Positions 154 to 47,805 of a stretch of 64,000 bases of DNA are shown in pieces. The first letter of the stretch is position 1. Each line of letters opens with the position of its first letter. Under the pieces are notes generated by a model. The model saw only the letters and a list, made by a program, of their open reading frames with translations, had not been told where the DNA came from and did no database searches. The position numbers were made by a program, and so were the translations under genes. Origin of the DNA: Candidatus Forterrea multitransposorum CG_2015-17_Forterrea_25_41 (GTDB lineage: Archaea > Iainarchaeota > Iainarchaeia > Iainarchaeales > CSSED10-239); assembly GCA_009392915.1 (NCBI GenBank), contig CP045477.1, forward strand, positions 544,001-608,000, written 5' to 3'.

Positions 154-294
154 ATGTGTAGAGTTATATTTACTCTTCCCAAATATATAAAACAAAAATT
201 AGAAAAAATAGCAAAAGAAAAAAATACAACACAATCTGAATTGATTAGAGCCTCTCTTTATTTGTATTTAGATAAGGAGAGTGATAATAAATGA
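154..294 (+). CDS. Ribbon-helix-helix (CopG/Arc-like) DNA-binding protein, 46 aa (not in the ORF track)
   Basis: Translation is MCRVIFTLPKYIKQKLEKIAKEKNTTQSELIRASLYLYLDKESDNK: a beta-strand (VIFTLP) followed by two helices, the classic RHH pattern. A GGTGAT Shine-Dalgarno sits 5 nt upstream of the ATG at 154. The stop TGA overlaps the next ATG (ATGA at 291-294). Confidence 0.6.
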   Translation: MCRVIFTLPKYIKQKLEKIAKEKNTTQSELIRASLYLYLDKESDNK

Positions 295-923: not shown

Positions 924-927
924 TATT

Positions 928-1248
928 ATGACTGAACAAATAGGCAGTGGTCTTTCTTGTTATCTTTGTGGAGAAGACCATCCAGCAGTAATTAAGAAAT
1001 TAGAATTACATCATATTGATGGTAAAGCTAATTCAAATACCACTGTTGCTATTTGTCAAAATTGTCATAATAAAATTACTTGTGAACAAAATAAACTATC
1101 TCCTAAATTGAGATCTAATAAAAATAAAGATTCTTTGATCAAGTTAGGTTATCAATTATTAAGTCACGGGGCTTTATTGAAGACTTTAGGAGAAACACAA
1201 ATAAAAATTGGAAAAGAGATGATTGAATATGAAAAAAATAATACTTAG
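928..1248 (+). CDS. HNH endonuclease
   Basis: Motifs CYLCGEDHP...LHHIDG...N...CQNCHNKI give two Cys pairs plus HH-N-H, an HNH zinc-finger nuclease signature. Its 3' end overlaps the PolB start. Confidence 0.6.
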   Translation: MTEQIGSGLSCYLCGEDHPAVIKKLELHHIDGKANSNTTVAICQNCHNKITCEQNKLSPKLRSNKNKDSLIKLGYQLLSHGALLKTLGETQIKIGKEMIEYEKNNT

Positions 1249-2791
1249 AGCATTTGCTAATGTTAATACAAATAAGAAAGACTATACTACAGAAATTAAA
1301 AAACATAGAAGAGTTTTAGTATTTGATACTGAAACAACTACTGATGAATATCAAAACCTTAAGATAGGGTTCTTTCAGGTTTATCAAGATAATATTAAGG
1401 TAAATGAAGGTTTATTCTATATAAATGACTTACCTAATGAAGATATTAAGGTTCTACAAAAATATTCTAGAACCTACCCTACCTCACTATATACCTTAGA
1501 TAAATTTAAAGATATATTCTATAAAGAAGTGTATAATAGAGGTACGTTATGTATTGGTTATAATCTAGCTTTTGATATATCTAGAATAGCTCAAAAATAT
1601 GGATATTCTAGAAAATATAATAAGGGTGGGTTTACATTTACTTTATCTAAGGATATAAACAAACCTCCTATAATTATTAAAAAATTAGGTGATGCTAATA
1701 CTTTTAAATTTCAAAGAAATATTGCTAATAAAGGTAAATCTTACAAAAGTGGTTATTTTTTAGATGTTCAAACAATATCTAAAATAATATTAGATAAGAG
1801 AAGGATTAGTTTAGATAAATCCTGTGAAATATTAAATACAACAACTAAAAAAATGAAAAATATCACACATGGAAAAATAACTAAACTTTATATTGATTAT
1901 TTAATTACTGATGTGAAGTCTACATTTGAAGTATATTTAGAATTATTAAAAGAATTTAAAAAATATGATATTGATATTCCATTAGAAAAAACATATAGTT
2001 CAGCATCTCTAGGTAAACAAGCATTAGCTCAATTAGGAATAAAATCTTTTTTTAATTGTAATCCGAATTTTAGTAAAGAATTAATCGGAATTATAATGTC
2101 TACTTATTATGGTGGAAGATGTGAATGTGTTTATAGAAAAAAACCAGTTAAAATTGATTATCTTGATTTTACTTCAATGTATCCTACTATTACCTTATTA
2201 TATGGTATTTGGGACTTTATAATTGCAGAACAAATAACTACTGAAGATGTTACTGATGAAATAAAAAATTTAGTTGAGAATATAGATTTAGAAAGTTTAA
2301 AAAATAAAGAATTATTTAGACAATTTAATGTACTTGTGAAAATTAAACCAAACAAAGATTTATTGCCAATTAGATTTGATTATAAAAACAAAAATGAAAA
2401 TAATAACTTAGGATTAAATTATCTTACAAGTGATAAAGAATTATGGTATACTTTACCGGATATAATTTCATCAAAAATACTAACTGGAAAAGCACCTCAA
2501 ATACTTGAAGCTATTAGATTTAAACCCAATGGAATACAAAGTGATCTTAAAAAATCTAAAATTGTTGGAGTAAATATAAACCCTAAGAAAGAAAATTTAA
2601 TTAAAATTTGTGTAGATAAAAGACAAGAAATTAAAAAAGAGATAAAAGAGTTAAAAAAAGATGATTTAGAATCTAAAAGACTTGATGGTATTCAGAGAGC
2701 CCTTAAAATTTTAGTTAATACTTTTAGTTATGGTATATTTATTGAATTAAATCCTAAAGAGGTAAAAAATAACATTAAATTTATGGTTTAA
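1223..2791 (+). CDS. Protein-primed family B DNA polymerase, N-terminal part (3'-5' exonuclease plus pol motifs A and B)
   Basis: Exo I is VLVFDTETTTDEY (DxE). Exo II is YNLAFDISRI. Exo III is YIDYLITDV (Yx3D). A YxGG-like motif is YYGGRCE. Motif A is LDFTSMYPT (DxxSxYPS). Motif B is KILVNTFSYGIF (Kx3NSxYG). The ORF stops shortly after motif B. Confidence 0.7.
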   Translation: MNMKKIILRAFANVNTNKKDYTTEIKKHRRVLVFDTETTTDEYQNLKIGFFQVYQDNIKVNEGLFYINDLPNEDIKVLQKYSRTYPTSLYTLDKFKDIFYKEVYNRGTLCIGYNLAFDISRIAQKYGYSRKYNKGGFTFTLSKDINKPPIIIKKLGDANTFKFQRNIANKGKSYKSGYFLDVQTISKIILDKRRISLDKSCEILNTTTKKMKNITHGKITKLYIDYLITDVKSTFEVYLELLKEFKKYDIDIPLEKTYSSASLGKQALAQLGIKSFFNCNPNFSKELIGIIMSTYYGGRCECVYRKKPVKIDYLDFTSMYPTITLLYGIWDFIIAEQITTEDVTDEIKNLVENIDLESLKNKELFRQFNVLVKIKPNKDLLPIRFDYKNKNENNNLGLNYLTSDKELWYTLPDIISSKILTGKAPQILEAIRFKPNGIQSDLKKSKIVGVNINPKKENLIKICVDKRQEIKKEIKELKKDDLESKRLDGIQRALKILVNTFSYGIFIELNPKEVKNNIKFMV

Positions 2792-3804
2792 ATGAATTTT
2801 CTTCTGATGTAAAACATATAGAAAATATTGGTAAATATTTCAATCCTATATTAGGCACGATAATAACCTCAGGAGCAAGATTATTTTTAGCTATAGCTCA
2901 ATCAATTACAGAAAAACAAGGGTATAAGCACGTTTATATGGATACAGACAGTATTTTAGTTCCTATTGAGGTATCTAGTAAGGTAATAAATTATTTTAAA
3001 CCTTTAAATCCTTATTCTTCAGATATAGCTTTACTTAAAAAAGAGAAAGAAGATGTATGTTTCTATGGTATTTGTAGTAAAAGATATTGTTTATATAATT
3101 TTAAAAATAAAAAAATTGAACTTATGGATTATAAATTACATGGTTTAGGGCATCTTATTAATCCTTGGAGTAATAAAAAGGATTGGCATAAGGATGTTTG
3201 GTTAGATATATTGAATTTACATTATAATTATATTACATCAGCAGAAATTTATGAAAAATATTCTGTAGTTTATGGAATATCTAGATTTACAGTATCTACT
3301 CCACATTTAATTAAGAGATTTAATACAATTAATAATGATAGACCTTATGAAGAACAAATTAAACCATCTAATTTTTTTTATTTAGGGTTTTCTGTAAATA
3401 AGAATAATTCTGTAAAACCATTAGTGCCTTTTGGAGGAAATCCTCAAAAGTTGGTTTATGATGAATTTATTGATTATAATACTGGAAAGGTAATGCAAGG
3501 TTGTGAGTATTGGAAACCTTTAGGAAATACAATCTTAGAGTATATTGATCATTCAGAGTATAAGTTAGATGGGGGTATTGGGCAATTAGAAAGAAAACAT
3601 ATTGTTTGTAATGATATTCAGTATATAGGAAAAGAAGCAAACAATATTGATGAAGAAGCTATATCTTCTTTTAAACCTATTGAGTATAAGAACAATAATC
3701 AGTTTAAGAAGGATCTTAGGTCATTGAATAATAAGGAGTTGATGCAAAAGTACCATTTCAAGACTAGGAGTCACATCAAGTATTGGAGAGATAAATTATT
3801 CTAA
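2779..3804 (+). CDS. Protein-primed family B DNA polymerase, C-terminal part (Tx2GR, motif C, KxY). It lies in the -1 frame relative to the N-terminal part.
   Basis: The frame is open from 2779: IYWLNEFSSDVKHIENIGKYFNPILGTIITSGARLFLAIAQSITEKQGYKHVYMDTDSILV. ITSGAR is the Tx2G/AR motif of protein-priming PolBs. YMDTDSI is motif C (YxDTDS). KRYCLY is KxY-like. The two parts together would give about 860 aa. The first ATG is at 2938. Confidence 0.65.
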   Translation: MYGLNEFSSDVKHIENIGKYFNPILGTIITSGARLFLAIAQSITEKQGYKHVYMDTDSILVPIEVSSKVINYFKPLNPYSSDIALLKKEKEDVCFYGICSKRYCLYNFKNKKIELMDYKLHGLGHLINPWSNKKDWHKDVWLDILNLHYNYITSAEIYEKYSVVYGISRFTVSTPHLIKRFNTINNDRPYEEQIKPSNFFYLGFSVNKNNSVKPLVPFGGNPQKLVYDEFIDYNTGKVMQGCEYWKPLGNTILEYIDHSEYKLDGGIGQLERKHIVCNDIQYIGKEANNIDEEAISSFKPIEYKNNNQFKKDLRSLNNKELMQKYHFKTRSHIKYWRDKLF

Positions 3805-5013
3805 CGATTCATATTCATAGCAATGTTTTTTTTTAGTATTTTTAATAACTAATCTTTTATCCATATCTTTATAAACTTCAGGAGGCATAAAAGTATTTTT
3901 ACCAAAAGTTACAAAATTATATTTAGTCATATCCTTAATATCTGTTTTTAAAACACCTATAATAAATGATAATTTTTGTTTAGTTTTATAATATAAAGTC
4001 CAACAAGTAAATTTATTTTTAATTAAAATATCATCTTTTTTACCATTTGAAAAAGCGCAATAAATACCAAAATCAAAATTATCCCAACCTAAAAATCTTT
4101 GGACATAATTTTTATTAGATTTTTTAAATTCAATGTATTTCTTAAATATTTCAATACCAAAATTACATTTTTGAAATGAATTTAATTTTAAAATTTGTTC
4201 AATAAATAAATAATCATCTTGCGATTCACACTTTTCTAATTGAAATATTAAGTCATCTATAAATACACTATATTTTTCATTATTCTTTTTAATATCTAGT
4301 TGATTTTTTAAAAACTCTTTATAATTAAATTCATCAAATAATATTAAACTCGCATCAACCCACTTTTTTGTAAGTTCAGCAATACCGTCTTTATTTTGTA
4401 AGTAAATACCTAATATATTTCTTTCTGAATCTAATAAATTATTTTTATTTATGATTAGTTCTCTTTTATCTAAATAATCTATGAAGTCAACAGGTGTGTG
4501 TATATAATTTATAATTTCATTTATTTCTGTATAATTAAAAATATGTGGCATTATTTTAATATTTGATGATTCTTTTTGTGTAATTGATAACAATCCTTTA
4601 TTTGCTAATTCATAATTTCCATTATTAATAACAACACCATAGATTTTCTTAATTTTTTTAAAATTACTATTTGTTAATTTTATATTTTCATTAAATTTAT
4701 TTTTAATATTCACATGAATTTTATTTTCTTTGATTCTATTTATACTTGCACGTAATTGTTTTGTTGGATTGTATATAGCTTTTTGTATATATCTTTTATC
4801 GATAATATCATGTATTTTTGTTTTTATTTGAATAATTATAGCAACATCATTTAATAAAATAATGAAATCGCATAACTCTTTATTATTTTCTAATTGTGGA
4901 TTTGGAAAAACAAAATATTTATGAAAAATAGGTTGTAAAATATTATTATATATTTTTTCTTCAAAAGAATCTTTAAAGTTATAATTATTATTCATAAATA
5001 AATAATATTGCAA
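3796..5013 (-). CDS. Hypothetical protein with a possible PD-(D/E)xK / NERD-like nuclease motif
   Basis: 405 aa. The N-terminal segment CDFIILLNDVAIIIQIKTK resembles a D...(E/Q)xK restriction-endonuclease-fold core. The rest is unassignable by eye. Confidence 0.3.
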   Translation of the reverse strand: MQYYLFMNNNYNFKDSFEEKIYNNILQPIFHKYFVFPNPQLENNKELCDFIILLNDVAIIIQIKTKIHDIIDKRYIQKAIYNPTKQLRASINRIKENKIHVNIKNKFNENIKLTNSNFKKIKKIYGVVINNGNYELANKGLLSITQKESSNIKIMPHIFNYTEINEIINYIHTPVDFIDYLDKRELIINKNNLLDSERNILGIYLQNKDGIAELTKKWVDASLILFDEFNYKEFLKNQLDIKKNNEKYSVFIDDLIFQLEKCESQDDYLFIEQILKLNSFQKCNFGIEIFKKYIEFKKSNKNYVQRFLGWDNFDFGIYCAFSNGKKDDILIKNKFTCWTLYYKTKQKLSFIIGVLKTDIKDMTKYNFVTFGKNTFMPPEVYKDMDKRLVIKNTKKKHCYEYESLE

Positions 5014-13544: not shown

Positions 13545-14675
13545 TTATATTTTATGAGTATATACTTTATTAATATAATTATAGATTATTTTTGATTTAG
13601 AAGAATCTATTCCTTGTATTTTTGAAATATCAGATAAATTTAAACTTTTAATAGTTTTTAATGAATTTTGAGAATTAATTAAACTATTAATAGTTTTTTC
13701 ATCTATTTCTGTTATTTTAGAAAAAAATCTATAACCTCTAGGGAAATCAAATTCTTTTTGAGAAGTAAAATTTGAAAGTTCTAAGATATCTATTAACTTT
13801 TCTGTATCTGCAATTTTTCTAATACCTAGTTGTTTTAGAAAATTTATTTTTTCTAAACATTCTTCTTTTAGATATATATTGTTAGAATAATCTTTTAAAA
13901 TTAAATATAATTCTTCTTCAAGACCATATGTAATTTCATAAAAAGAATTAGAAATATCTTGACCTTGAGAACCAAGCTCTACTATTAAATCATCAACTTG
14001 AGTTTCATTTTTGAAAAAATATAAAATATTCTGTATTAAATCTAAAACTTCTGTTTTTAGATTATTTGATAAAATAATTTCTAAATCATATAAATTTTTA
14101 ATTTTTTTATCAATCTTTGATCTAAAATCTTTTAAATTGTTAATTGCATAACTTGCTTTTACCATTAAAATATTAAAATCTTGTAAAACATATTTTTGAT
14201 CTTTATAATAAAGAGAAATAACATTTCTTCTATGTGAAATTGCAATAACAGGTAAATCAGATTGCATTGCTGTTTGTTCAGCTGATCGATGTCTCATTCC
14301 TGTCTCTTTTGAAGAAATATCTCTATCTGGCATTAAATGTTTATTTGCACCTACAATCTTTGTTAAATCATTTGAAAGAACTATAGCTCCATCCATTTTT
14401 GAAAGTTCAAAAAGCTTTTGAGAAGAAAAAGGAATATCTAAATCAATTCCTCCTTTTAAAATAGGTTTTAACTTATCTGAATCACCTAAAACTATTAAAG
14501 CACCTAAGTTACCATGTAAAATTTCATCCAAACCACTCCTTAATTCTGTTCCAGGAGTTACAAGAGGGAGTATTTTAGTAATATCAATAACATCATTTTC
14601 ATGTATTTGACTGATTAATTTTGATTGAAAATCTTCTTCTTGAATAAAAACTTTTTTTTTTGGTCTTGTAGGCAT
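13545..14675 (-). CDS. DisA/DacZ-like diadenylate cyclase (c-di-AMP synthase, DAC domain)
   Basis: DAC motifs GALIVLGD, DGAIVLS, KHLMPDRD...ETGMRHRSAEQTA...LPVIAISHRRNVISLYY. The RHR motif and ISLYY closely match DisA-type DAC domains. Confidence 0.7.
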   Translation of the reverse strand: MPTRPKKKVFIQEEDFQSKLISQIHENDVIDITKILPLVTPGTELRSGLDEILHGNLGALIVLGDSDKLKPILKGGIDLDIPFSSQKLFELSKMDGAIVLSNDLTKIVGANKHLMPDRDISSKETGMRHRSAEQTAMQSDLPVIAISHRRNVISLYYKDQKYVLQDFNILMVKASYAINNLKDFRSKIDKKIKNLYDLEIILSNNLKTEVLDLIQNILYFFKNETQVDDLIVELGSQGQDISNSFYEITYGLEEELYLILKDYSNNIYLKEECLEKINFLKQLGIRKIADTEKLIDILELSNFTSQKEFDFPRGYRFFSKITEIDEKTINSLINSQNSLKTIKSLNLSDISKIQGIDSSKSKIIYNYINKVYTHKI

Positions 14676-15905: not shown

Positions 15906-16175
15906 CTATTTTTTAAAAACTTTCATACATGGAATAATTGCAAAAAATACAAATAATATTAGATAAGCATACCATTCAAGAGAAAGGATATTAGGACATA
16001 ATTTTGCAAGCATTAATGTAAAAAATAAAACACTTAATTTTATTAAAGCAATGTCTGTCCATTTCATATTTTTTATTTTTTTATTTAATATTTTAAAACA
16101 CATAAAAACACCTCTTTTTATAATTAAAGATACAGATAATGTATTTTTAAATATATTTAAAATAAGAAATCTCAT
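15906..16175 (-). CDS. Small membrane protein (hypothetical)
   Basis: 89 aa with two or three TM helices. Confidence 0.3.
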   Translation of the reverse strand: MRFLILNIFKNTLSVSLIIKRGVFMCFKILNKKIKNMKWTDIALIKLSVLFFTLMLAKLCPNILSLEWYAYLILFVFFAIIPCMKVFKK

Positions 16176-16816
16176 TAAAAATGAGATTTCTCTTTAGATA
16201 AAATATAATCTAATCTTATTTTATTAGCTTCTTGAACATATTTTTTGTAATTTTGATCAGGCATTCTACTATGACTAAAACCACAAGTATAACATTCTTT
16301 TTTATGACCTGTTAAAACATCTTTGTTTTTAACTAATGCTTTTTCCCAATCTTTTGCAAAAGAATCATTTAAAATATTCCCTATAATTGTGTTAATTGTC
16401 CAACAAGTATAAACTTCACCTTTTGGAGAAATTAAAAGATCTTTACAATAACTATAACAAGGGACTATAATTTTTTCTTTTTTAAAATATTTTTTAATTA
16501 ACTCAATTCTTTCCTTACTTGTAATCTCTATATTATATTTGTTCGCAAGAGAAACTACTTTATCTATAGATGAAAGATCAATATTGAACTTATAGTTAGA
16601 ATTATTTCCAACACCATATATTTGAACAGGATCAAAGTCTATGAAAACTCCACCTAGTTCTTTAGATAACTCGACAATACTTTCAAGAGTAGAAATATTT
16701 TCATTTAAGATTGTACAATCAATCTCTATGTTTGGATGTTTATCTTTACTAATTATTTTTTTTAAACCCTCTACTGCTGAATTAAAAATTCCTGGGTAAA
16801 TTTCTGATTTTATCAT
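16175..16816 (-). CDS. Radical SAM enzyme, C-terminal segment with Cys-rich SPASM/twitch-like motifs
   Basis: IVPCYSYC...CW...ECYTCGF cysteine clusters. It overlaps the upstream rSAM ORF by 35 nt in another frame, and SPASM domains are normally fused to the rSAM core. Confidence 0.45.
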   Translation of the reverse strand: MIKSEIYPGIFNSAVEGLKKIISKDKHPNIEIDCTILNENISTLESIVELSKELGGVFIDFDPVQIYGVGNNSNYKFNIDLSSIDKVVSLANKYNIEITSKERIELIKKYFKKEKIIVPCYSYCKDLLISPKGEVYTCWTINTIIGNILNDSFAKDWEKALVKNKDVLTGHKKECYTCGFSHSRMPDQNYKKYVQEANKIRLDYILSKEKSHF

Positions 16817-17216
16817 GAATCTCAGGAAATCCAGAATCTATTGAAACAACAAGATTATCTACAAAATTAGAAACAACATCTACATGGTTGTTTAAAAGAG
16901 AACCATTTGTAATAATTTGTACCTTTAAATTTTTATTTTTTGCATGTATTATTAAATCATCAATATTTGGATGAAGCAATGGCTCTCCTCCCCATAAAGT
17001 TACCCATTTAAAATTAAGATCAGATAATTTATTTATTATTGAAAGAAGAGTTTCTTTTTCACCCATATAAGGATTTTTCCATATATTACACATAACACAT
17101 TTAGCATTACATGCAAAATTTACCTGCAGATAAGCATCTGTAGGAATTGAATTATTTTTTGCATTTTCAACATATAATTTCATTTTATCATATTTACTAC
17201 TTTCATTCATTTGCAT
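16782..17216 (-). CDS. Radical SAM enzyme, N-terminal core segment (probably one gene with 16175..16816, frameshifted)
   Basis: CxxxCxxC cluster FACNAKCVMCNIW and a glycine-rich SAM motif WGGEPLL. Confidence 0.55.
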   Translation of the reverse strand: MQMNESSKYDKMKLYVENAKNNSIPTDAYLQVNFACNAKCVMCNIWKNPYMGEKETLLSIINKLSDLNFKWVTLWGGEPLLHPNIDDLIIHAKNKNLKVQIITNGSLLNNHVDVVSNFVDNLVVSIDSGFPEIHDKIRNLPRNF

Positions 17217-28310: not shown

Positions 28311-29363
28311 ATGGACAAAATAATTGGAATTAAAGTAAATAAAGATAAAGCACAAGAAACAATTTCTAAAATAAAAGAAGAAAATAACTTTAATTCAAGA
28401 TATAAGATAATTAGAGAAAAAGAAAACATAATCATACCTATTAAAAAAATAACTTCAGACTTAAATAAAAATAACATAGTAGAAATTAATAATCCAGAAA
28501 AACAAAAAGAAATTGGACTTACATACAAAGAAATACTTAAAAAAGAAATAAATTCTAAATATATAGATAATCTCCCTTCTTCTTATGATATTGTAGGAGA
28601 CATTATAATAATTAACATAGAAGATAAAGAATTTCTTAAAGAATATAGTTCAAATCTAACTAATTCTCTTAAAAAAATACATCCCCACATAAAAGTAGTC
28701 TTAAACAAATCAAAAGAACATCATGGAACCTTTAGAACACAAGATTTAGAATGGATAGGTGGCGAAAATAGAAAAGAAACAATTATCCAAGAAAACGGAT
28801 GTTATTTAAAAACAGATGTTGAGAAAGTATTTTATTCAACAAGACTTGCAACAGAAAGAAAAAGAATAGCCTCTTTAGTCTTAGAAAATGAAACAATAGG
28901 AGTTTTCTTTGCAGGAGTAGGTCCTTTTTCAATAGCCATTGCAAAACTTGCAAAACCAAAAGAAATTATTTCCATTGAACTTAACCCTATTGGTGTTAAA
29001 TATATGGAAGAAAATATTTTAAAAAATCAAATGGAAAAAATAATAACACCAATAGAAGGTGATGTTAAAGAAATATCTAAAAGATATCCAAACTACTTTG
29101 ATAGAATACCAATGCCACTTCCAAAATCTGCAGAAAATTTTTTAGATGATGCAATTTTTTCAATAAAAGATAAAGGAATAATACACATTTATAATTTTGT
29201 ATCTAAAAATGAACCATTTAAAGAAATTGAAAAAATAATAAAAGAAAAAGAAAAAAAGAATAATTGCAAGATAGAAATAATATTTAAGAAAGTTATTAGA
29301 AGTTTTTCTCAAACCACTGTACAGATTGTAATGGATTTAAAAATATCTAAAGATCTTTCTTAA
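28311..29363 (+). CDS. Trm5/Tyw2-family tRNA methyltransferase (Met-10+ like, m1G37 type)
   Basis: Class I MTase core VGVFFAGVGPFSIAIAK (GxGxF). The acidic/NPPY-like motif is ISIELNP. The N-terminal D1-like region is typical of archaeal Trm5. Confidence 0.7.
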   Translation: MDKIIGIKVNKDKAQETISKIKEENNFNSRYKIIREKENIIIPIKKITSDLNKNNIVEINNPEKQKEIGLTYKEILKKEINSKYIDNLPSSYDIVGDIIIINIEDKEFLKEYSSNLTNSLKKIHPHIKVVLNKSKEHHGTFRTQDLEWIGGENRKETIIQENGCYLKTDVEKVFYSTRLATERKRIASLVLENETIGVFFAGVGPFSIAIAKLAKPKEIISIELNPIGVKYMEENILKNQMEKIITPIEGDVKEISKRYPNYFDRIPMPLPKSAENFLDDAIFSIKDKGIIHIYNFVSKNEPFKEIEKIIKEKEKKNNCKIEIIFKKVIRSFSQTTVQIVMDLKISKDLS

Positions 29364-31716
29364 GTTTAGGTTTCTTTTTAGAAGTTTTAGATTTAGAAAC
29401 TTCTTTTGGTTTTACTTCTTCTTTTTTCTTTGAAGGTTTAATTTTTGAAACTATTTTTTTAACACTTTTAATAGAATCACTTTTTTCATTTTCTAAAAGA
29501 AGTTTCTTTCTTTTCTCAAGTTCAAATATTTGTTTATCAATAATTTTCTTTTCAAAATCAACTGAAGCACTATCATAAATAGTTTTAGATTTAGAATCCT
29601 TTAAAACATCTTTATTTTTTATTCTTTCAAGCTCTAAAAGATATTTATCTCTCATTTCTTTATAAGTGAAAGGACTTATTTTTCCTTCAATTAATTTTTC
29701 ATCTAAATAACCTATTTGTTTAATTATTCCTTCCTTTGAATGATGTTTTTTAAATCTTTCAACTTCAAAGACAATTGTTAAAACCATTAAAAACAAAGCT
29801 GCAACAAATAAATAAAGATAAACATCTTTCTTCTCTTTTGAATAAATATAGATGTTTTGAGAAGAAGTTTCTTTTTCTTTACTTACATTTTCATCTTCAT
29901 CAGAAACAATAATTACAGAGCCTTGATTTGAAGAACTAATATCAATAACTAATGTTTCAAGATCTGTATTTAAATAATAATCAAGAACTATTTTTTCTGT
30001 TTCATAAAGATAATGTGCAAAATTAAGTATAGAGTTTGCAACATTTAATTGAGATTTTGCTTTTTCTTCATCTTTATTTTTATAGAAATCATGAGCATTT
30101 TTATAATAAATACCATGATCTAAGAAAGTTTTAGACCAAACATAATTTTCATTATTCATTGCACTTTGATTTCTTAAATCTTTAGTTAATTGATCATATT
30201 TAATATTAAAATCATTTAATGTAAAATTATTTTTACTGTCTTCTTGTGTTTTTATAACAGCTAAAGCAGTTGCTGAATCATAAAGTGAAGTTACATACCA
30301 TCCTCTTTGGTAATTAATCTTTGCAGCATTAAGTCTTCTTTTTAAATCTTCAGTATCTGCTATGTTTGGAGCAACTAAAATTAATTGATTTTCAACAGAT
30401 ATAATGCTTTCTTGTGCTTTTTCTTTAAAAAAGTTAGATTCTACAAACTTTAAATCATTATTTGTTGTAATTGATGCATCTAAAAAATCATTTGCAATTT
30501 CTGTCCATGCTAAAGCATAAGCATATTCTTGTATTTTTGAAAAATTATTTATAGTTTGCTTTTCTTTTAAAGATTCAACTTTATCTCTTGCCCAAGTAAT
30601 TCTTTGTCTTCCACCAACACACCATTCTAAATATTCAATTGAACAGTTGTTAGATCTGTTTTCTGTTAAAGTTATTTTTTCATCAAGTTCAGAAACTCTA
30701 AGATCAAAAATAATTGAAGAATCTGCTAAAATTGATGGATTTGTAATAATTTCTTCAACAGAGATTATATTAATATAAGCTAAAAAAGAATTATTTGCTG
30801 CTGAATAAAAATAATTATTTTCATAAAACTTTTTTGAATTTTCAACAAGTTCTTCAGAATAAGTAACTGTTGATAAAAGTGTATCTAGAACATCTAAATC
30901 TTTTATGTTAGAGGAAGATATTTTAGAATTAATTGAAGATAATTTTTCTTCAGTATTAAGAATATATTCTTCAGTTATTTTTTTTAAAGGTTCAACAGCT
31001 TTAGAATATTCAATTTTATTATAAACAAAATCATCTACTTTTTCTTCTTGAATAGAATTTACATCAATTGAAGAAACATCTTTAAAAGCATAATCTAGAA
31101 CATCATCAATAGTTGATACTTCAATAATCTTTAAACCCCATTCATTATAAGCATGCTCAATTAAATCAACTTGTTTAATTTCATCATCTTCATTAATCAC
31201 TTGAGATCTATTTCCTTGAGGTATGAAAAATAAATCAACACCTATTTCAGAAGCTTTTTTTGCTTTATAATAAATTCCACCAACATCTCCAATATATCCA
31301 TCAATTGAAATTGAACCAGTCATACTTACATTTTCAGGAACTGGAGAATCTTTAAACATTGAAATTATTAAGAGAGCCATTGCACCACCTGCAGATGGAC
31401 CATCTATAGTGTGTGCATTTGAAGTAATATCAACTGTAAAATCATACTCTTGCTTAATATCTTCTTTTATAACTGAATCTGCAACTGCAATTGCATTTTT
31501 AAAAGATTCTTGTGTTGAAGAACCTACTATTGATTCATCTATTGAAGAATATATTTTTCCAGTACCAGGTATAATTTTTACATTTAATTGTGCATCTTTT
31601 GCACTTGTTTCACCAGATACTGCGAAAATCTTCATATTAGCATCAGAAACTAATGCAAAAAGATTAGGCATTAAAAGTATTAAAAATAATAATATTGCAA
31701 TTGATTTAATTTTCAT
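29347..31716 (-). CDS. Secreted/membrane-anchored protein with a Lon-like S16 peptidase domain
   Basis: N-terminal signal peptide (MKIKSIAILLFLILLMPNLFAL). The Lon proteolytic domain IDGPSAGGAMALLIISMF...VSMTGSISIDGYIGDVGGIYYKAKKASEIGVDLFFIPQGN carries the catalytic Ser in DGPSAG and a downstream Lys. A large middle domain is followed by a C-terminal TM helix and a Lys-rich tail. 789 aa. Confidence 0.65.
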   Translation of the reverse strand: MKIKSIAILLFLILLMPNLFALVSDANMKIFAVSGETSAKDAQLNVKIIPGTGKIYSSIDESIVGSSTQESFKNAIAVADSVIKEDIKQEYDFTVDITSNAHTIDGPSAGGAMALLIISMFKDSPVPENVSMTGSISIDGYIGDVGGIYYKAKKASEIGVDLFFIPQGNRSQVINEDDEIKQVDLIEHAYNEWGLKIIEVSTIDDVLDYAFKDVSSIDVNSIQEEKVDDFVYNKIEYSKAVEPLKKITEEYILNTEEKLSSINSKISSSNIKDLDVLDTLLSTVTYSEELVENSKKFYENNYFYSAANNSFLAYINIISVEEIITNPSILADSSIIFDLRVSELDEKITLTENRSNNCSIEYLEWCVGGRQRITWARDKVESLKEKQTINNFSKIQEYAYALAWTEIANDFLDASITTNNDLKFVESNFFKEKAQESIISVENQLILVAPNIADTEDLKRRLNAAKINYQRGWYVTSLYDSATALAVIKTQEDSKNNFTLNDFNIKYDQLTKDLRNQSAMNNENYVWSKTFLDHGIYYKNAHDFYKNKDEEKAKSQLNVANSILNFAHYLYETEKIVLDYYLNTDLETLVIDISSSNQGSVIIVSDEDENVSKEKETSSQNIYIYSKEKKDVYLYLFVAALFLMVLTIVFEVERFKKHHSKEGIIKQIGYLDEKLIEGKISPFTYKEMRDKYLLELERIKNKDVLKDSKSKTIYDSASVDFEKKIIDKQIFELEKRKKLLLENEKSDSIKSVKKIVSKIKPSKKKEEVKPKEVSKSKTSKKKPKLKKDL

Positions 31717-33072: not shown

Positions 33073-35190
33073 TTATTCTAAGCCACCATCAGTAATAGTC
33101 CAATTATAATTATTAATTAATATATTTTTTGCATCAACTGCAGAACTATCATAATTAACTGCTGTTGCACCTAATGTAACATTACTTTTTAAATTAGTTA
33201 AATTTGACCATCTAATTAAAATATTAGAATAATTTACAGTAGATAATGCATAATCAAACATATGAGCCATATCAGTTACATTTGAAACATCCCATGCACT
33301 AATATCTTGATCAAAACAAATATCAGAAATACTAAAGAAACATTGAAACATTCTGTTCATATTTGTAACATTTGAAACATCCCACATACTTATATTTTGA
33401 TTAAATGAATAATTATTATAAAACATAGAAGACATATCAGTTACATTTGAAACATCCCAATTATTCAATGGTTGATTAAATCTAGTACATCTAAACATTG
33501 CAGCCATATTAGTTACATTTGAAACATCCCAATTATTTATAGAAGTATTAGTCCATGAAAATACACCATTATTTGGAGGACTACTTACACTACAATTTTG
33601 ATAACCACTAAAAGTTCCTGCTAAATTTGTAATTCCGTTTAAATCAGGAACATCAGTTGCAGTTACAACTAAATTTGTAGCTCCAGAGAAATAATATCCA
33701 CTATTTCCAAATTTTAAATTACCCCATTGACTAATTTCAGTTAATTTTAATTTATCTCCAGAATTATTAAACCTAAAACCTTCAATAAAACCTGTTATGA
33801 TTACATCATATATCCCAGAACTTGAATATGTGTGAGTTTTATCAGGATCACTATAACTTGTAACCTCTGATGTAGTTCCATCTCCCCAATAAACTTTAAA
33901 ATTATAATTATTACTATAAAGAGAAGCAGAATCTAAAGGTAATGTAATTTGATTTGCATTTGAAGAACCAGTACTAATTTTTGTAGTATCCCATTTAGAT
34001 ATAAATGCATCTGAAGTAGGTATAAAATTTGCAGTTAAATTCACATTACTTGAAGGCATTGTATAACTAAATGAAGGATCTGTACTTACTACAGTACCAT
34101 TTTGATCAATCCAATTTACATAAGAAAATTCAGCAATAGAAGAGACAGATATATTTGCAACATCTCCAGGATTATAATTTCCTGCACCATTTAAACTAAT
34201 ATTTACTGAATCTGGATTTTCAATTAAATTTAAATTATAAGCAACAGGCAAACTAAAAGTTGCAGTTACATTTTTAACTTCAGTCATAGAAACAGAACAA
34301 CTAATTTGAGGTCCAGAACAATCCCCAGACCATCCTTCAAAAACATATCCTGAAACTGGAGTTGCATTTAATTGAACAGATTGTTGATCAGGAAAAGTTG
34401 CAGAACAGTTTGTTTGAGATTCTAAACAATTAATTCCAGAAGGATAAGTTTCAACAGTTCCTCCAATTGTTTTAGTTAAATTTAAAGTATAACTGTTTGG
34501 AAGATTAAAAGTTGCAGTTACATTTCTTGCTTGAGTCATGGAAACTGTACAAGTAAGATTAGTTCCTGAACAAGCACCTGACCATCCACCAAAACTATGA
34601 CCAGTAACAGGATTTGCAGTTAAAGTAACTGAAGTGCCTGAAGAATAATTTTCAGAACAATTAGTTCCACAATTAATACCAGAAGGATTTGAAGTCACAG
34701 TTCCATTTCCCGCACCACTTAAAGATACATTTAAAGTATAAGTTGATGGAGCAGTTGATGAAAAATTTGCAGTTAAAGAAGTATTTGAATTTAAATTAAA
34801 AGTATATGGATTTGTGGAAAGTGAACCTGTTGGAGTTGTCCAATTATTAAAAGTATAACCTGAAAGAGCAGTTGCAGTTGCAGTAACTGAAGTTCCACAA
34901 CTAAAAGTTCCAGCTCCTGAAACAGTACCACCTGCTGGAGGGTTTGAAGATAAAGTTAAAACACAATTACTACCAACACCTGAAATTGGTTCATAATCTT
35001 CAGGATTTGTTAAATCTTTAATAAAACCATCAATTGTTGAATTTGTAGCAGCATCAATTTCTCCTGCTTGATCTACTTTTTCATTTGTAAATCCAATTAA
35101 AATAGTTGCTAAAATAACAGCACCTAAAATCAAAACACCAATAATAATTATCATCTCTAAAGAGACTTGAGCTTTTTTACTTTTATTCAT
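33073..35190 (-). CDS. Large DUF361-type pilin-like adhesin with Flg_new-like repeats and BspA/DUF285-like C-terminal repeats
   Basis: The class III signal is MNKSKKA|QVSLEMIIIIGVL. The ORF-track start at 35265 adds a 25-aa Lys-rich extension that is probably untranslated. Four repeats have the form ...NPSGINCGTNCSENYSSGTSVTLTANPVTGHSFGGWSG... C-terminal 25-aa repeats are NWDVSNVT(N/D)M(A/S)xMF. Many NxT/S sequons. Confidence 0.7.
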   Translation of the reverse strand: MNKSKKAQVSLEMIIIIGVLILGAVILATILIGFTNEKVDQAGEIDAATNSTIDGFIKDLTNPEDYEPISGVGSNCVLTLSSNPPAGGTVSGAGTFSCGTSVTATATALSGYTFNNWTTPTGSLSTNPYTFNLNSNTSLTANFSSTAPSTYTLNVSLSGAGNGTVTSNPSGINCGTNCSENYSSGTSVTLTANPVTGHSFGGWSGACSGTNLTCTVSMTQARNVTATFNLPNSYTLNLTKTIGGTVETYPSGINCLESQTNCSATFPDQQSVQLNATPVSGYVFEGWSGDCSGPQISCSVSMTEVKNVTATFSLPVAYNLNLIENPDSVNISLNGAGNYNPGDVANISVSSIAEFSYVNWIDQNGTVVSTDPSFSYTMPSSNVNLTANFIPTSDAFISKWDTTKISTGSSNANQITLPLDSASLYSNNYNFKVYWGDGTTSEVTSYSDPDKTHTYSSSGIYDVIITGFIEGFRFNNSGDKLKLTEISQWGNLKFGNSGYYFSGATNLVVTATDVPDLNGITNLAGTFSGYQNCSVSSPPNNGVFSWTNTSINNWDVSNVTNMAAMFRCTRFNQPLNNWDVSNVTDMSSMFYNNYSFNQNISMWDVSNVTNMNRMFQCFFSISDICFDQDISAWDVSNVTDMAHMFDYALSTVNYSNILIRWSNLTNLKSNVTLGATAVNYDSSAVDAKNILINNYNWTITDGGLE
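33271..33540. repeat. Four copies of a roughly 75-bp periodic repeat (core agttacatttgaaacatccca) within the large adhesin gene
   Basis: Near-identical 25-30 nt cores at about 33271, 33364, 33436 and 33509. They encode the repeated NWDVSNVTxMxxMF units. Confidence 0.75.
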
Positions 35191-35279
35191 ATCTTTATCC
35201 ACTTTTTTTACTTTTTTAGATTTTATTATTTTTTTAGATTTAATTTTTTTAACTTCTTTTTTCATAAATATCTTTTCTC

Positions 35280-43715: not shown

Positions 43716-43871
43716 AAAAAAATCACACTCTTTTTAATTTGTTTTAAACTATTATTATTTTATATTTAAAATAATTATAAATAACTATGAAACGAAATGT
43801 TTATATATTAGATGGAAATTAAAGGCTAAATTAACCTTATTTTCATAAAAAATAACAAAATAAGAAGTATT

Positions 43872-44051
43872 ATGCTTAAAAAGAAAATAACAATAACAAA
43901 AAATGACTTTAATAAAACTTTAAGAGATATACTAATAGATCTTAATATAAATCCAGAAACAGTACTTGTAAAGATAGATGGAATATTTAAACCAATATCA
44001 ACTGTTATAAAAAAAGAAACTGAAATAGAAGTTTTAGTTGTAATAAAGTGA
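43872..44051 (+). CDS. ThiS/MoaD-like beta-grasp mini-protein lacking a C-terminal Gly-Gly, 59 aa (not in the ORF track)
   Basis: MLKKKITITKNDFNKTLRDILIDLNINPETVLVKIDGIFKPISTVIKKETEIEVLVVIK follows the ThiS pattern (I.I......TL.DLL..L.I.PE.V.V..NG.I.........D.IE.V) but ends in VIK rather than GG. It lies 7 nt upstream of an NcsA/TtuA-like gene. Confidence 0.4.
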   Translation: MLKKKITITKNDFNKTLRDILIDLNINPETVLVKIDGIFKPISTVIKKETEIEVLVVIK

Positions 44052-44058
44052 AAAAAAT

Positions 44059-44994
44059 ATGAATATTAAATGCGATAAATGTTCTAAAGATGCTTTAATA
44101 TATTTAGCATACGGAAAGCATAATTTCTGTAAAGATCACTTTAATGATTTTTTTGAAAGTAGGTTTAAAAAAACAATTAGACAATTTAAACTTTTTTCAC
44201 AAAAAGATTATTTAGGAGTTGCAACTTCTGGTGGAAAAGACTCAATGGTTTTACTTTATTTAATAAATAAAATATTTAGAGAAAAAAGAATTAATTTCTG
44301 TGCAATCTTTGTTGACGAAGGAACTGATAATTATTCAAATAAAACTTTCCAAGTTGTTAAAGATTTTTGTACTAAAGAAAATATTAAACTTGTAACCTCC
44401 TCTCATAAAAAAGAATTTGATATATCAACACAAGAGATTGGAGAAAAATATGATAAAAAAGAAGGAACTGTTTGCACTTATTGTGGAGTTTTAAGAAGAA
44501 AAACATTAAACAGACTTGCAAATAAAGAAAAAGTTTCAAAACTTCTAACAGGACATAATTTAGATGATGAATGTCAAACTATTTTAATGAATCTTTTAGA
44601 TAATGATACCTTAAGATTTTTTAGAACAGGTCCTGAAACAGGAATTATTGATATTGAAAATACAAGACCTAGAATTAAACCATTTTACTTAACTCCTGAA
44701 AAAGAAATTGCAGCATATGCTCTCTTTAATCAAATACCTTTTCATGATTGTAATTGTCCTTTCTTTAGAACAGCTAAAAGAAATCATTTTAGAAATTTTT
44801 TAAATGAAACAGAAATTATACATCCTGGATCTAAATTTTCATTAGTTAAAAGTTTTTTAAAAATAAAAGAACTTTCAAATCTTAAAAAAATAATTACTAA
44901 AAAAAATCTAAAAAAATGTAAAATTTGTAAAGAAGATACAAGTCAAGATATATGTAAGGCATGCGAGTTAATTTCAAAAATTAAAAAGATATAA
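44059..44994 (+). CDS. NcsA/TtuA-family tRNA 2-thiolation PP-loop ATPase
   Basis: N-terminal Zn finger CDKCSKD...CKDHF. PP-loop VATSGGKDSMVLLYL (SGGxDS). Catalytic Cys region CTYCGVLRR. C-terminal CxxC...CxxC. Confidence 0.8.
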   Translation: MNIKCDKCSKDALIYLAYGKHNFCKDHFNDFFESRFKKTIRQFKLFSQKDYLGVATSGGKDSMVLLYLINKIFREKRINFCAIFVDEGTDNYSNKTFQVVKDFCTKENIKLVTSSHKKEFDISTQEIGEKYDKKEGTVCTYCGVLRRKTLNRLANKEKVSKLLTGHNLDDECQTILMNLLDNDTLRFFRTGPETGIIDIENTRPRIKPFYLTPEKEIAAYALFNQIPFHDCNCPFFRTAKRNHFRNFLNETEIIHPGSKFSLVKSFLKIKELSNLKKIITKKNLKKCKICKEDTSQDICKACELISKIKKI

Positions 44995-45025: not shown

Positions 45026-45098
45026 GGTCCTGTGGTCTAGTGGTTATGACGTCGCATTGACATTGCGGAGATCCCCAGTTCGATCCTGGGCAGGACCA
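45026..45098 (+). tRNA. tRNA-Val (anticodon GAC)
   Basis: GGTCCTG acceptor stem, anticodon stem TCGCA/TGCGG with loop TTGACAT, T-arm CCCAG-TTCGATC-CTGGG, 3' acceptor strand CAGGACC, discriminator A. CCA is not encoded. Confidence 0.85.
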
Positions 45099-45122
45099 CT
45101 TATAATTTTATAAAGAAAATTT

Positions 45123-46760
45123 ATGAATCCTATAAAAGATTTAAAAACTGCATCTGAAAAGATAAAACAAAATAGTGAAAAACTAAAAGATGACTTTATT
45201 AATTATAAATATATATTAAATCAGATTAAGCAGATTATAGATTTTCAAGACGCTTTAATTGACCCTTTAAAATCACAAAAGAAAATTTTAAAGAAAATAA
45301 TTAAAAGAAATAAAAATACTGAGTATGGTAAAAAATATTCTTTTTCTAAAATAAAAACTATTGAAGATTTTCAAAAACAAGTACCAATTATAAAATATAA
45401 TGATATTTCAGAAGATATTGAAGAGATAAAAAAAGGAAAACAAAATATTTTTACTAGAGACAAAGTAGTATACTTTGCATCAACCTCAGGAACTACAAGT
45501 AAGATTAAACTTATACCTGTTACGAAGCAAAGAATAAAAAATTATAATAAAGAATTTGCTTTATGGGCTGTATATGTTCTAAAAGATTATGTGAAAATTG
45601 CAAATGGAAAAACACTTTATTTTGCAGGACCTTATTTTGAAGGTAAAACAAAAGGTAAAATACCATATGGTAGTATCTCTGGATACCTTCCTTTTAAATC
45701 ACCTTGGTATGTTAAAAAGAAAATATCAAATCCAATAAATGTTTATAACGAAATGAATTTTAATAAAAAAATTAAAAAAATGGCAATCCATGCACTCCAA
45801 GAAAATATAACCCAAATTGCTTTCACAGCACCAATTGAAGCCATTCTTTTTTTAGATTATATAAAAGAAAATAAAACTAAATTAATAAAAATAATTAAAA
45901 AGAAAAATTCTAAAAGAGCAGAATATCTATCCAAAATTGATGATTTTAAAGCGATTAATATTTGGCCAAATATAGGACTTGTAAGTTGTTTTAGATCAAA
46001 GACAAATGAAATGTATATTGACACATTAATGAAAAAAATTGGTAAAAAAATTGAAATTAGAGATCCAGGTATAAATGCTTCTGAAGGTAGAATATCTATT
46101 GGTATATCAAAAGATGGTATTTCAGGAGTATTTCCATTAAATACAACTTTTTTTGAATTTATTGATTTTAATAAAGAAAAAAAAGAAATAATTACAGTAG
46201 ATAAATTAAAATTAAATAGAAAATATAAAGTAATAATTACAACTCAAGAAGGACTATATAGATATGATATGGGAGATGTTGTAAAAGTAACCAGTTTCTT
46301 TAAAAAGATTCCTGAAATTAAATTTTTTACAAGAGAAAATTATCTTAATATCGCAGGAGAACTTGCATATGAAGATGAAATTGTTAAAGCTTTAAAAAAA
46401 TCTTTCACAGAAGAAAATTTTAAAATTAAATACTACACTGTAATTCCATATCTTAAAGATCTTTCAAAAAAACCAAGATATGAAATATTACTTGATCTTG
46501 AAGAAAATAAAACTGAAAAAGAAATTATAAAACTAAAAGAAAAAATAGATTTAAATCTTAAAGAAACAATAAACGACTACAAACAAATGAGAGAAGAGTT
46601 TGGAAGAATGGATATGCCAGTTATATCTATTCTTGAAAAAAATAGTTATGATGAATTTAATAAAAAAAGAGTTGTAGGCTCTGGAAATCCAAAACCAATA
46701 AATATACATCCTGAGCAGAATTTTAGAGAAAATTTTAAAATAAAGAAAACATATGAATAA
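45123..46760 (+). CDS. GH3-like acyl-adenylate-forming amido ligase (ANL superfamily)
   Basis: 545 aa. GH3-type motif VVYFASTSGTTSKIKLIPVT (SSGTT-like P-loop), then YGSISGY and the typical GH3 length and organisation. Confidence 0.55.
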   Translation: MNPIKDLKTASEKIKQNSEKLKDDFINYKYILNQIKQIIDFQDALIDPLKSQKKILKKIIKRNKNTEYGKKYSFSKIKTIEDFQKQVPIIKYNDISEDIEEIKKGKQNIFTRDKVVYFASTSGTTSKIKLIPVTKQRIKNYNKEFALWAVYVLKDYVKIANGKTLYFAGPYFEGKTKGKIPYGSISGYLPFKSPWYVKKKISNPINVYNEMNFNKKIKKMAIHALQENITQIAFTAPIEAILFLDYIKENKTKLIKIIKKKNSKRAEYLSKIDDFKAINIWPNIGLVSCFRSKTNEMYIDTLMKKIGKKIEIRDPGINASEGRISIGISKDGISGVFPLNTTFFEFIDFNKEKKEIITVDKLKLNRKYKVIITTQEGLYRYDMGDVVKVTSFFKKIPEIKFFTRENYLNIAGELAYEDEIVKALKKSFTEENFKIKYYTVIPYLKDLSKKPRYEILLDLEENKTEKEIIKLKEKIDLNLKETINDYKQMREEFGRMDMPVISILEKNSYDEFNKKRVVGSGNPKPINIHPEQNFRENFKIKKTYE

Positions 46761-47805
46761 ATATTTTTCAGAAAACTATTTTCAAGCAAGAGAAAAATTT
46801 AGAAAAAGTACAGCTAAACTTAAGAAAAGTAATTATCATATAATTGATGATTTAACTATTGATGTTGCTGAAAGCCATCCTAAAAAAAAAGAAAAACTAT
46901 TAATTATAATTTCAGGAACTCATGGAGTAGAAGGATATGTTGGAAGTGCTTTTCAATTATTTTTTATTGATAAATATCTATCTAAAATTAAAGATAAATA
47001 TGGGATATTATTAATTCATTCTCTAAATCCTTATGGTTTTAAAAATAATAGAAGATACAATGAAAATAATGTTGATCTAAATAGAAACAATAACAAAGAC
47101 TTTTCAAAAATTAATTATTTTTTTAATAAAAATAAATTATTTAAAGAAGAAAATATATTTAATATTAAAAGAGCATTTCTAAGTGATAATTTTGAAAGAA
47201 TCAGATATAATTTACTATTGTACAAATTAATTTTAAAGCATGGAATATCTAAAACAATACAATTAATTGGACATGGACAAAATAAATATCCTAAAGGGTT
47301 ATGTTATTCAGGAAAAAATAAAGAAAAATCAATCTTATTTTTAGATAAAAAAATAAAAGAAATAACTAAAGATTATAAAGAAACAATATTAATTGATGTT
47401 CATACTGGAGCTGCAAAAAAATATAATTTAGATATATTTACTGCAAATAAACTAAATGAAATTAAAATAGATGTTCCTTTTAAGTCAACAAACACTAAAA
47501 AAAAAGGAACTGATCATATTGGTGGAATTGAGAATAGTTTGTTTGAAAATTCAAAATCAAAAAAAAATATTCATTTCACTTTAGAGTTTGGAACAATAAA
47601 TAAATATTCAACAGTAATCTCTCTAAATTATCTTAGTTATTTATTGTTTAAAGAAAATCAAATAACAAACTTTGGACCTTTTGAAAAAATACCAAAAATT
47701 AGACAAAAAATGAAAAAAGCTTATTTTCCAGAAAATAAAAAATTTAAAGAAAATATGTTAAAAAAAACAAAAGACTTTTTAGAAAGAATTATAAATTATC
47801 AATAG
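46753..47805 (+). CDS. M14-like zinc carboxypeptidase / AstE-AspA (DUF2817-like) family protein
   Basis: LLIIISGTHGVEGYVGS matches the GxHGxE zinc-binding motif of succinylglutamate desuccinylase/aspartoacylase and DUF2817 proteins, with downstream His (DVHTG). It overlaps the GH3-like gene by 8 nt. Confidence 0.5.
   Translation: MNKYFSENYFQAREKFRKSTAKLKKSNYHIIDDLTIDVAESHPKKKEKLLIIISGTHGVEGYVGSAFQLFFIDKYLSKIKDKYGILLIHSLNPYGFKNNRRYNENNVDLNRNNNKDFSKINYFFNKNKLFKEENIFNIKRAFLSDNFERIRYNLLLYKLILKHGISKTIQLIGHGQNKYPKGLCYSGKNKEKSILFLDKKIKEITKDYKETILIDVHTGAAKKYNLDIFTANKLNEIKIDVPFKSTNTKKKGTDHIGGIENSLFENSKSKKNIHFTLEFGTINKYSTVISLNYLSYLLFKENQITNFGPFEKIPKIRQKMKKAYFPENKKFKENMLKKTKDFLERIINYQ

Follow-up and report, generated by a model that had tools for sequence, protein, structure and literature searches.

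An NcsA/TtuA-family tRNA thiolase gene in Iainarchaeum-type DPANN archaea is preceded by a conserved TtuB/SAMP2-like beta-grasp gene without a terminal Gly-Gly

We examined a 64,000-nucleotide (nt) stretch of the Candidatus Forterrea multitransposorum CG_2015-17_Forterrea_25_41 genome (contig CP045477.1, positions 544,001 to 608,000; the window hereafter), in which a small open reading frame (ORF) of 59 amino acids (aa) lies directly upstream of a gene for a tRNA thiolase of the NcsA/TtuA family. The small protein is a clear homologue of the ubiquitin-like sulfur carriers that serve such enzymes, and it ends without their C-terminal Gly-Gly. The window has a guanine-cytosine content of about 23% and archaeal gene content, including ribosomal protein L15e and TFIIB-type neighbours. 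A first-pass annotation of the same DNA had reported a 59-aa ORF ending in EVLVVIK 7 nt before the thiolase, and the coordinates of both genes agree with that report. The protein, MLKKKITITKNDFNKTLRDILIDLNINPETVLVKIDGIFKPISTVIKKETEIEVLVVIK, begins MLKKK and ends EIEVLVVIK; its length is just below the 60-aa default of an ORF lister, which fits the omission of the gene from the ORF track. The features of the gene pair and its upstream region are:

43800..43807, + strand: TTTATATA box, flanked on its 5' side by purine-rich sequence, a candidate archaeal promoter of TATA box and TFB-recognition element (BRE), by sequence reading
43872..44051, + strand: TtuB/SAMP2/ThiS-like beta-grasp gene, 59 aa, without C-terminal Gly-Gly (ATG at 43872, TGA at 44049-44051)
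44046..44048, + strand: Lys59 codon, clade-invariant and aligned to the F/S that precedes the invariant GG in relatives
44048-44051, + strand: GTGA Shine-Dalgarno-like element, overlapping the small-ORF stop codon
44052..44058, + strand: intergenic spacer of 7 nt between small ORF and thiolase, read from the sequence
44059..44994, + strand: NcsA/TtuA-family [4Fe-4S]-type PP-loop tRNA 2-thiouridine synthetase, 311 aa (Pfam, NCBIfam and PDB matches)

The spacing and common orientation of the small ORF and the thiolase gene suggest operon-like coupling; in relatives the spacer is 7–24 nt, often with an AAGGA present. The candidate promoter lies 64 nt upstream of the small-ORF ATG, in the gap between this ORF and the divergently oriented L15e gene. 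A block, TTTATATAT, is invariant in a three-way alignment of the window with two related loci (L001 and L005), while the flanking intergenic DNA has diverged. Both the direction and the use of this promoter are presumptive.

Several lines of evidence show that the small gene is real and maintained. In the window, 80 ATG-initiated ORFs of at least 59 aa were observed, compared with 7.3 ± 2.8 in shuffles, and when the 343 nt that separate the start of L15e from that of ncsA were shuffled, an ORF of at least this length arose in only 1.5% of cases. A word-indexed search of 5.8 billion proteins returned 20 homologues at 64–100% identity, each 59–60 aa long when mis-called extensions are set aside, and a profile search together with locus scans brought the total to about 30 sequences. 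Twenty positions are invariant in the alignment of 21 sequences spanning 64–100% identity (A1), and the Lys59-terminated form of 59–60 aa persists in relatives down to about 53% identity. Pairwise comparisons of the window gene with three relatives gave ratios of nonsynonymous to synonymous substitution (dN/dS) of 0.07–0.28, with synonymous sites saturated, which indicates that the small ORF is under purifying selection. Its divergence (61–93% identity to relatives) is on par with that of NcsA (60–97%) and L15e (67–100%), so the gene is not decaying. Whether the ORF is conserved in relatives had been left by the first-pass annotation as a point on which its proposal could fail; it is, and it stands upstream of NcsA in 13 of 14 distinct Iainarchaeial loci.

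That the ORF is a remnant in decay, or else spurious and functionless, could be suspected from the short length, the missing Gly-Gly, the absence of annotation in some records and the one locus (L013) in which the gene is not found upstream of NcsA. The selection analysis already contradicts this idea, as do the fixed length, the invariant positions, a rate of divergence no faster than that of the neighbouring genes, the low frequency of such an ORF in shuffled gaps and the confident fold prediction described below, and we consider it extremely improbable.

The proteins without Gly-Gly belong to a single group of organisms. The 90% cluster of the window NcsA and seven species-representative genomes carry the labels Candidatus ainarchaeum / Iainarchaeum or simply 'archaeon', and the window NcsA protein is identical to the NCBI entry 'TIGR00269 family protein [archaeon]'; the clade is that of Iainarchaeum-type DPANN archaea. 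Annotation of the small gene suffers from its shortness, from scores under family cut-offs and, in some gene calls, from wrongful extension by reading TGA as Trp. Four database calls (P0001, P0002, P0004 and P0007) translate TGA in this way, in the style of genetic code 4, and acquire spurious tails (WKKYEY and similar).

To family models the small protein is a weak match, and SAMP2 was the only family found for it in either Pfam or NCBIfam. The Pfam SAMP2 match (PF21965) has an E-value of 2.6e-4 and 21.8 bits, under the gathering score of 27, and the NCBIfam SAMP2 match aligns residues 14–59 to profile positions 20–64 of 66 with 19.5 bits against a cut-off of 70. AlphaFold2, given the family alignment, predicted a beta-alpha-beta-beta-beta layout with beta-grasp topology at a predicted local distance difference test score (pLDDT) of 91.4. 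When this model was compared with the PDB by Foldseek, the top five matches were TtuB chains of Thermus thermophilus TtuA-TtuB complexes, with template-modelling (TM) scores of 0.69–0.73, 28–33% identity and a probability of 1.00. Escherichia coli ThiS and Pyrococcus SAMP2 followed at lower ranks amid unrelated folds such as HPr, and TGS domains were among the weaker fold matches. TtuB was also the best match of the family profile among PDB sequences, at a non-significant E-value of 0.14. When the profile was run without an index against 1.84 billion representatives, only 16 proteins were recovered, of which 4 are further members of the family without Gly-Gly and 12 are of GG or SSG type; these 12 are 60–66 aa long, end in FGG, SGG or SSG, and mostly carry Pfam ThiS and/or SAMP2 annotation. 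The two groups are firmly linked by hhalign, which aligned the family without Gly-Gly to 23 GG-ending, ThiS/SAMP2-annotated relatives at 99.3% probability and an E-value of 4.9e-20. The small protein is thus a clear homologue of TtuB/SAMP2/ThiS-type sulfur carriers with a beta-grasp fold. The ThiS-type pattern and beta-grasp fold proposed from the letters in the first-pass annotation, which had named rejection by profile searches as the outcome that would overturn them, are borne out by the profile alignment, the confident model and the TtuB structural matches.

Compared with its homologues, the small protein differs at its end. TtuB of T. thermophilus (PDB 5GHA, 5ZTB) ends in Gly-Gly, whereas the small protein is two residues short of that end, its last residue being an invariant lysine, and is about 5 residues shorter in the beta1-beta2 region. 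SAMP2 (5lda_B) and Mth1743 (PDB 1RYJ), the latter possibly a member of arCOG00535, match its fold at 27–33% identity. Proteins of the SAMP2, UblA and arCOG00535 type act as sulfur carriers and as protein modifiers, together with the E1-like enzyme UbaA. In Haloferax volcanii SAMP2, Thermococcus kodakarensis UblA and the arCOG00535 ThiS family, the C-terminal Gly-Gly is essential, unlike in the small protein, where it is missing. The nearest relatives outside the clade are DPANN proteins of similar size (for example P0032, P0028 and P0027; 31–44% identity) with FGG or SGG tails.

The position of the missing tail can be fixed by alignment. In joint alignments (A1, A3), Lys59 falls on the F/S residue directly before the GG of the relatives; in the outgroup alignment (A6), G63 and G64 are the sole invariant columns; and hhalign places residues 3–58 of the query on 7–61 of a 64-position template, with Lys59 opposite position 62 and G63-G64 unmatched. 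Of 127 collected sequences, 95 end in GG and 3 in SSG, and the remainder form one GG-less clade or its mis-called extensions. Across 14 loci the C-terminus is either Lys59 itself, with TGA or TAA as the stop, or Lys59 followed by F, M or N; database sequences add S, I and V at residue 60, with Lys59 still invariant. The loss of Gly-Gly is a trait of the whole clade and not a defect of a single sequence. On the GG-ending side, three proteins (P0026, P0029 and P0054) have Ser-Ser-Gly in place of Ser-Gly-Gly, and these tails are possible intermediates or variant carrier tails.

If the missing tail were an artefact, it would stem from a sequencing error, from recoding of TGA, or from a frameshift extending the small protein or fusing it to NcsA. 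The TGA stop followed by a run of seven A residues, and the gene calls that read TGA as Trp, are what speak for an artefact. However, TGA ends 6 of the 54 long ORFs of the window and is an ordinary stop there, and in relatives TAA, TAG or TGA closes the gene either at this position or a codon later. Residue 60 shows no conservation, loci differ from one another in spacer length and relative frame, and no GGNGGN was found downstream of the small ORF across the loci. An artefactual origin of the missing Gly-Gly has next to no probability in our view, and the variation in stops, spacers and frames rules out recoding, frameshift or sequencing error as a way of restoring Gly-Gly or fusing the protein to NcsA.

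Three explanations for the missing tail had been offered in the first-pass annotation: a non-conjugatable beta-grasp partner, a carrier that needs C-terminal processing, or a thiolase with another sulfur source. Processing to expose a Gly-Gly was rejected, because the family alignments contain no internal GG and no conserved glycine. The other two are mutually compatible and jointly appear to be the best explanation. A second, GG-ending small ORF that might supply a carrier was sought in the window and the Iainarchaeial loci, and none was found except an unrelated membrane-like peptide in L017. The variability of residue 60 next to an invariant Lys59 suggests that selection is apparently not on C-terminal carboxylate chemistry, which would argue against an alternative thiocarboxylate carrier. 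As judged from the alignments, the variable end residue offers an activating enzyme no C-terminal chemistry that is conserved.

The thiolase, by comparison, is an intact member of its family. It matches Pfam ATP_bind_3 (E-value 1.3e-21), TtuA_LIM_N (28.3 bits, cut-off 27) and zn-ribbon_14, and exceeds the NCBIfam cut-off for TIGR00269 (83 bits, cut-off 62.75), while it remains far below the cut-offs of the NCBIfam equivalogs for NcsA (204 bits, cut-off 500) and Pyrococcus TtuA (172 bits, cut-off 450). The best PDB matches were Pyrococcus horikoshii TtuA (PhTtuA; 4.5e-46, 160 bits), Methanococcus maripaludis NcsA (MmNcsA; 7.6e-41, 143 bits) and T. thermophilus TtuA (TthTtuA; 1.7e-31). Its principal motifs are:

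44227..44244, + strand: PP-loop motif S57-G-G-K-D-S62, for ATP binding and adenylation, invariant in the thiolase alignment (A4) and aligned to PDB homologues
44473..44484, + strand: C139-x-x-C142, two of three predicted [4Fe-4S] ligands, invariant in A4 and aligned to the CxxC of PhTtuA and MmNcsA
44755..44757, + strand: C233, predicted third [4Fe-4S] ligand, the sole A4-invariant cysteine of the HDCNC stretch

At the HDCNC position, the L006 thiolase reads KKSCK. The zinc-finger residues, N-terminal C5, C8, C24 and H27 and C-terminal C287, C290, C299 and C302, are all invariant. Alignment A4 covers the clade and a Micrarchaeota homologue, and the PP-loop, the three cysteines and the zinc fingers are invariant throughout it. 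The role of the CxxC cysteines as cluster ligands comes from work on characterised enzymes (PMC10067955, PMC7138817), and the same domain set and cluster cysteines are found in Thermotoga maritima TtuA, P. horikoshii TtuA and M. maripaludis NcsA. The window enzyme keeps all the catalytic elements of the NcsA/TtuA family, and cluster binding is predicted for it. Its motif CGVLRRK is closer to CGVIRRK of MmNcsA than to CGLTKRY of PhTtuA; this, together with a mesophilic, AT-rich genome rich in Lys, Glu and Gln codons, would favour uridine 34 over uridine 54 as the tRNA target, if only indirectly.

Gene order around the pair is largely fixed in the clade. L15e, on the opposite strand, is followed by the small ORF, NcsA, a GH3-family gene and a DUF2817 gene, with three exceptions (L013, L022 and L024), and in most loci the small ORF lies on the NcsA strand 7–24 nt upstream of it. 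The first-pass annotation had asked whether relatives encode a GG-terminated version at this position, and other DPANN archaea do so upstream of NcsA. At least three cases are known: the gene for P0032 (Anstonellaceae, Micrarchaeota) runs into the beginning of a PP-loop gene of 313 aa, and those for P0028 and P0027 precede an NcsA-like gene by 2 nt and about 40 nt respectively, while another GG-ending relative (P0036) instead adjoins genes for aldehyde:ferredoxin oxidoreductase, cysteine desulfurase and NifU. An association of ThiS-family arCOG00535 with PP-loop arCOG00042 in many archaea was described by Makarova and Koonin (PMC2948915), and its arrangement is that of the window, with a carrier-like gene directly upstream of an NcsA-type PP-loop gene. 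From the GG-ending relatives upstream of NcsA, it follows that the window locus is the known ThiS-like/NcsA operon, in which the carrier has been deprived of its tail.

The reading that we hold to be somewhat probable is that the small protein, derived from a TtuB/SAMP2-type carrier, is now a partner that cannot be thiocarboxylated, paired with a [4Fe-4S] thiolase that uses sulfide. The ancestor would have been a ubiquitin-like sulfur carrier encoded directly upstream of the tRNA 2-thiolase NcsA, as in many archaea, whose terminal Gly-Gly was lost in one Iainarchaeum-type DPANN clade. Since the terminal glycine of ThiS, MoaD and ubiquitin-like proteins is needed for E1 adenylation (PMC2948915, PMC1779556), the tail-less protein would presumably no longer be adenylated or thiocarboxylated by an E1-like enzyme. 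In the characterised system, the E1-like TtuC thiocarboxylates TtuB, whose C-terminus serves as a ligand to the unique iron in the TtuA cluster, and TtuA-TtuB binding stabilises that cluster (PMC7138817; for the C-terminus as ligand and stabiliser also PMC10067955). In the window clade no thiocarboxylate would be delivered to the [4Fe-4S] cluster's unique iron, and the thiolase would most likely take free hydrosulfide on the cluster, as MmNcsA and TtuA do in vitro. TtuA enzymes, PhTtuA among them, and MmNcsA thiolate tRNA with inorganic sulfide, and some organisms are without TtuB (PMC7138817, PMC10067955); in T. kodakarensis, ubiquitin-like carriers are dispensable given elemental sulfur or plentiful inorganic sulfur (PMC11323500). 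The beta-grasp protein would most likely be kept as a non-covalent accessory subunit docked at the former carrier site, where its contribution could be to shield the oxygen-labile cluster and the active site or to make them more stable, possibly through the invariant terminal Lys59. Carrier-independent TtuA/NcsA systems, those of T. maritima, P. horikoshii and M. maripaludis, have been described as lacking a TtuB-type partner altogether, whereas the window clade keeps a degenerate one. No description of a TtuB/ThiS-like partner of NcsA/TtuA without Gly-Gly was found in the literature searched, which is not proof that there is none; the clade-wide TtuB/SAMP2 derivative is, within that literature, an undescribed variant of a known system.

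Several observations weigh against this reading. In L013 (1..1368; archaeon isolate SO_2016_LW2_139, NcsA 72% identical), NcsA and GH3 are kept, there is no L15e gene upstream, and no small beta-grasp ORF was found in the 435 nt upstream of NcsA; in that lineage the partner is dispensable, that is lost, or else relocated. Two other loci have a gene inserted between the pair on the same strand, identified by motif reading as a 221-aa methyltransferase-like gene in L022 (7471..8136) and a 148-aa P-loop gene with GTTCTGKTT in L024 (10171..10617), so that tight translational coupling is not obligatory. The unrelated neighbours L15e and GH3 are also conserved in order, making synteny within the clade weak evidence of a functional link. 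Finally, neither an E1-like gene (ThiF/MoeB/UbaA/TtuC) nor a JAMM gene was found by motif regular expressions and tblastn (query: an E. coli ThiF sequence) in the window and fetched loci, but these 305 kb are a small part of the genome and do not establish absence genome-wide.

The first three of these observations also speak for a different reading, in which the beta-grasp protein was re-purposed and now has a task that does not involve the thiolase, such as RNA binding like that of TGS domains or docking to another protein, with its position at ncsA only an operon relic. The TGS domains among the weaker fold matches point the same way. On the other hand, the best structural and sequence matches are carriers of the TtuB, SAMP2 and Mth1743 type and not TGS domains, the LNINPETVLVK core common to NcsA-linked GG-ending relatives is still present, and the close same-strand position before NcsA is retained in most loci. 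Net charge gives no hint of RNA binding either, being no different from that of Lys-rich GG-ending relatives (mean isoelectric point 9.2 in the GG-less proteins compared with 9.3). We regard re-purposing as unlikely.

The genes that follow the thiolase raise a further alternative. A GH3-family adenylate-forming ligase gene (Pfam GH3 6e-52; window 45123..46760, + strand) comes after NcsA in almost every Iainarchaeial locus; besides the window, these are L001, L005, L006, L011-L016 and L020-L024. In the window and in L001 and L005 it is followed by a DUF2817 zinc-hydrolase-like gene (1e-59; window 46753..47805, + strand), and in the window a tRNA-Val(GAC) gene (45026..45099, + strand) lies between the thiolase and GH3 genes. 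Homologues of the GH3 protein at 42–52% identity are widespread in Woesearchaeota and Nanoarchaeia in unrelated contexts. In L026 (5001..8008), a GH3 homologue is convergent to a ThiI-type tRNA 4-thiouridine (s4U) synthetase gene, a possibly coincidental second GH3-thiolase pairing.

GH3 enzymes adenylate carboxylates. The small protein could on this basis still be a sulfur carrier or modifier, activated at its non-glycine C-terminus by something other than an E1. In the specific form of this idea, the DUF2817 carboxypeptidase-like enzyme would trim residue 60 and the GH3 ligase would adenylate the exposed Lys59, an E1-independent ubiquitin-like activation. The presence of GH3 and DUF2817 downstream of NcsA in Iainarchaeial loci and their absence from the loci of GG-ending relatives are in its favour, as is a variable residue 60 after an invariant Lys59. 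However, NcsA and GH3 are separated by the tRNA-Val gene in the window and by a VTT-domain gene in L001, L013 retains NcsA-GH3 without the small ORF, and the surroundings of GH3 homologues in Woesearchaeota and Omnitrophica are unrelated, with neither a beta-grasp gene nor NcsA among them. The tail, two residues shorter, would also fall short of the cluster iron in a TtuB-like docking (by extrapolation from PMC7138817), and no precedent was found in the literature searched. We judge a carrier with non-E1 activation to be highly improbable, and the GH3/DUF2817 scheme a shade less probable again. If true, that scheme would represent a ubiquitin-like activation chemistry of which no domain of life has a known example. 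In a milder version of it, the protein would have become a permanent subunit, and its invariant terminal lysine would extend into the active site of the thiolase where a Gly-Gly tail otherwise would.

A C-terminal glycine is the defining feature of ubiquitin-like sulfur carriers, and the pairing of TtuB, SAMP2 or Urm1 with a thiolase is regarded as what connects sulfur transfer with ubiquitin-type conjugation in evolution. A carrier-like protein under strong selection without its Gly-Gly, acting as a partner of a sulfide-using thiolase, would be natural evidence of a second, carrier-independent role of the beta-grasp, with cluster or active-site stabilisation, gating and tRNA handling as candidates. 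It would also provide a simple two-protein system in which to test in vivo free-sulfide use by NcsA/TtuA, a question called unresolved in the field (PMC10067955), and it points to sulfide-dependent tRNA thiolation in reduced DPANN genomes.

Elsewhere in the window, a DisA-type diadenylate cyclase is encoded at 13545..14675 (− strand; Pfam DAC 2e-25, DisA-linker 1.5e-14). The block at 291..5013 consists of ORFs without Pfam matches at E ≤ 1e-3, including the consecutive ORFs 1223..2791 and 2938..3804, the second of which begins MDTDS, reminiscent of a family-B DNA polymerase motif; the block may represent an integrated element, or else a polymerase gene that has been split. At 16175..17216 (− strand) the overlapping ORFs 16782..17216, with a CxxxCxxC motif, and 16175..16816, with a SPASM match of 4.6e-5, may be halves of one radical-SAM/SPASM protein whose gene is split or frameshifted. 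The − strand also encodes a 789-aa protein at 29347..31716, whose sole Pfam match is the Lon_C protease domain, and a 730-aa surface-type protein with DUF285/Flg_new repeats at 33073..35265.

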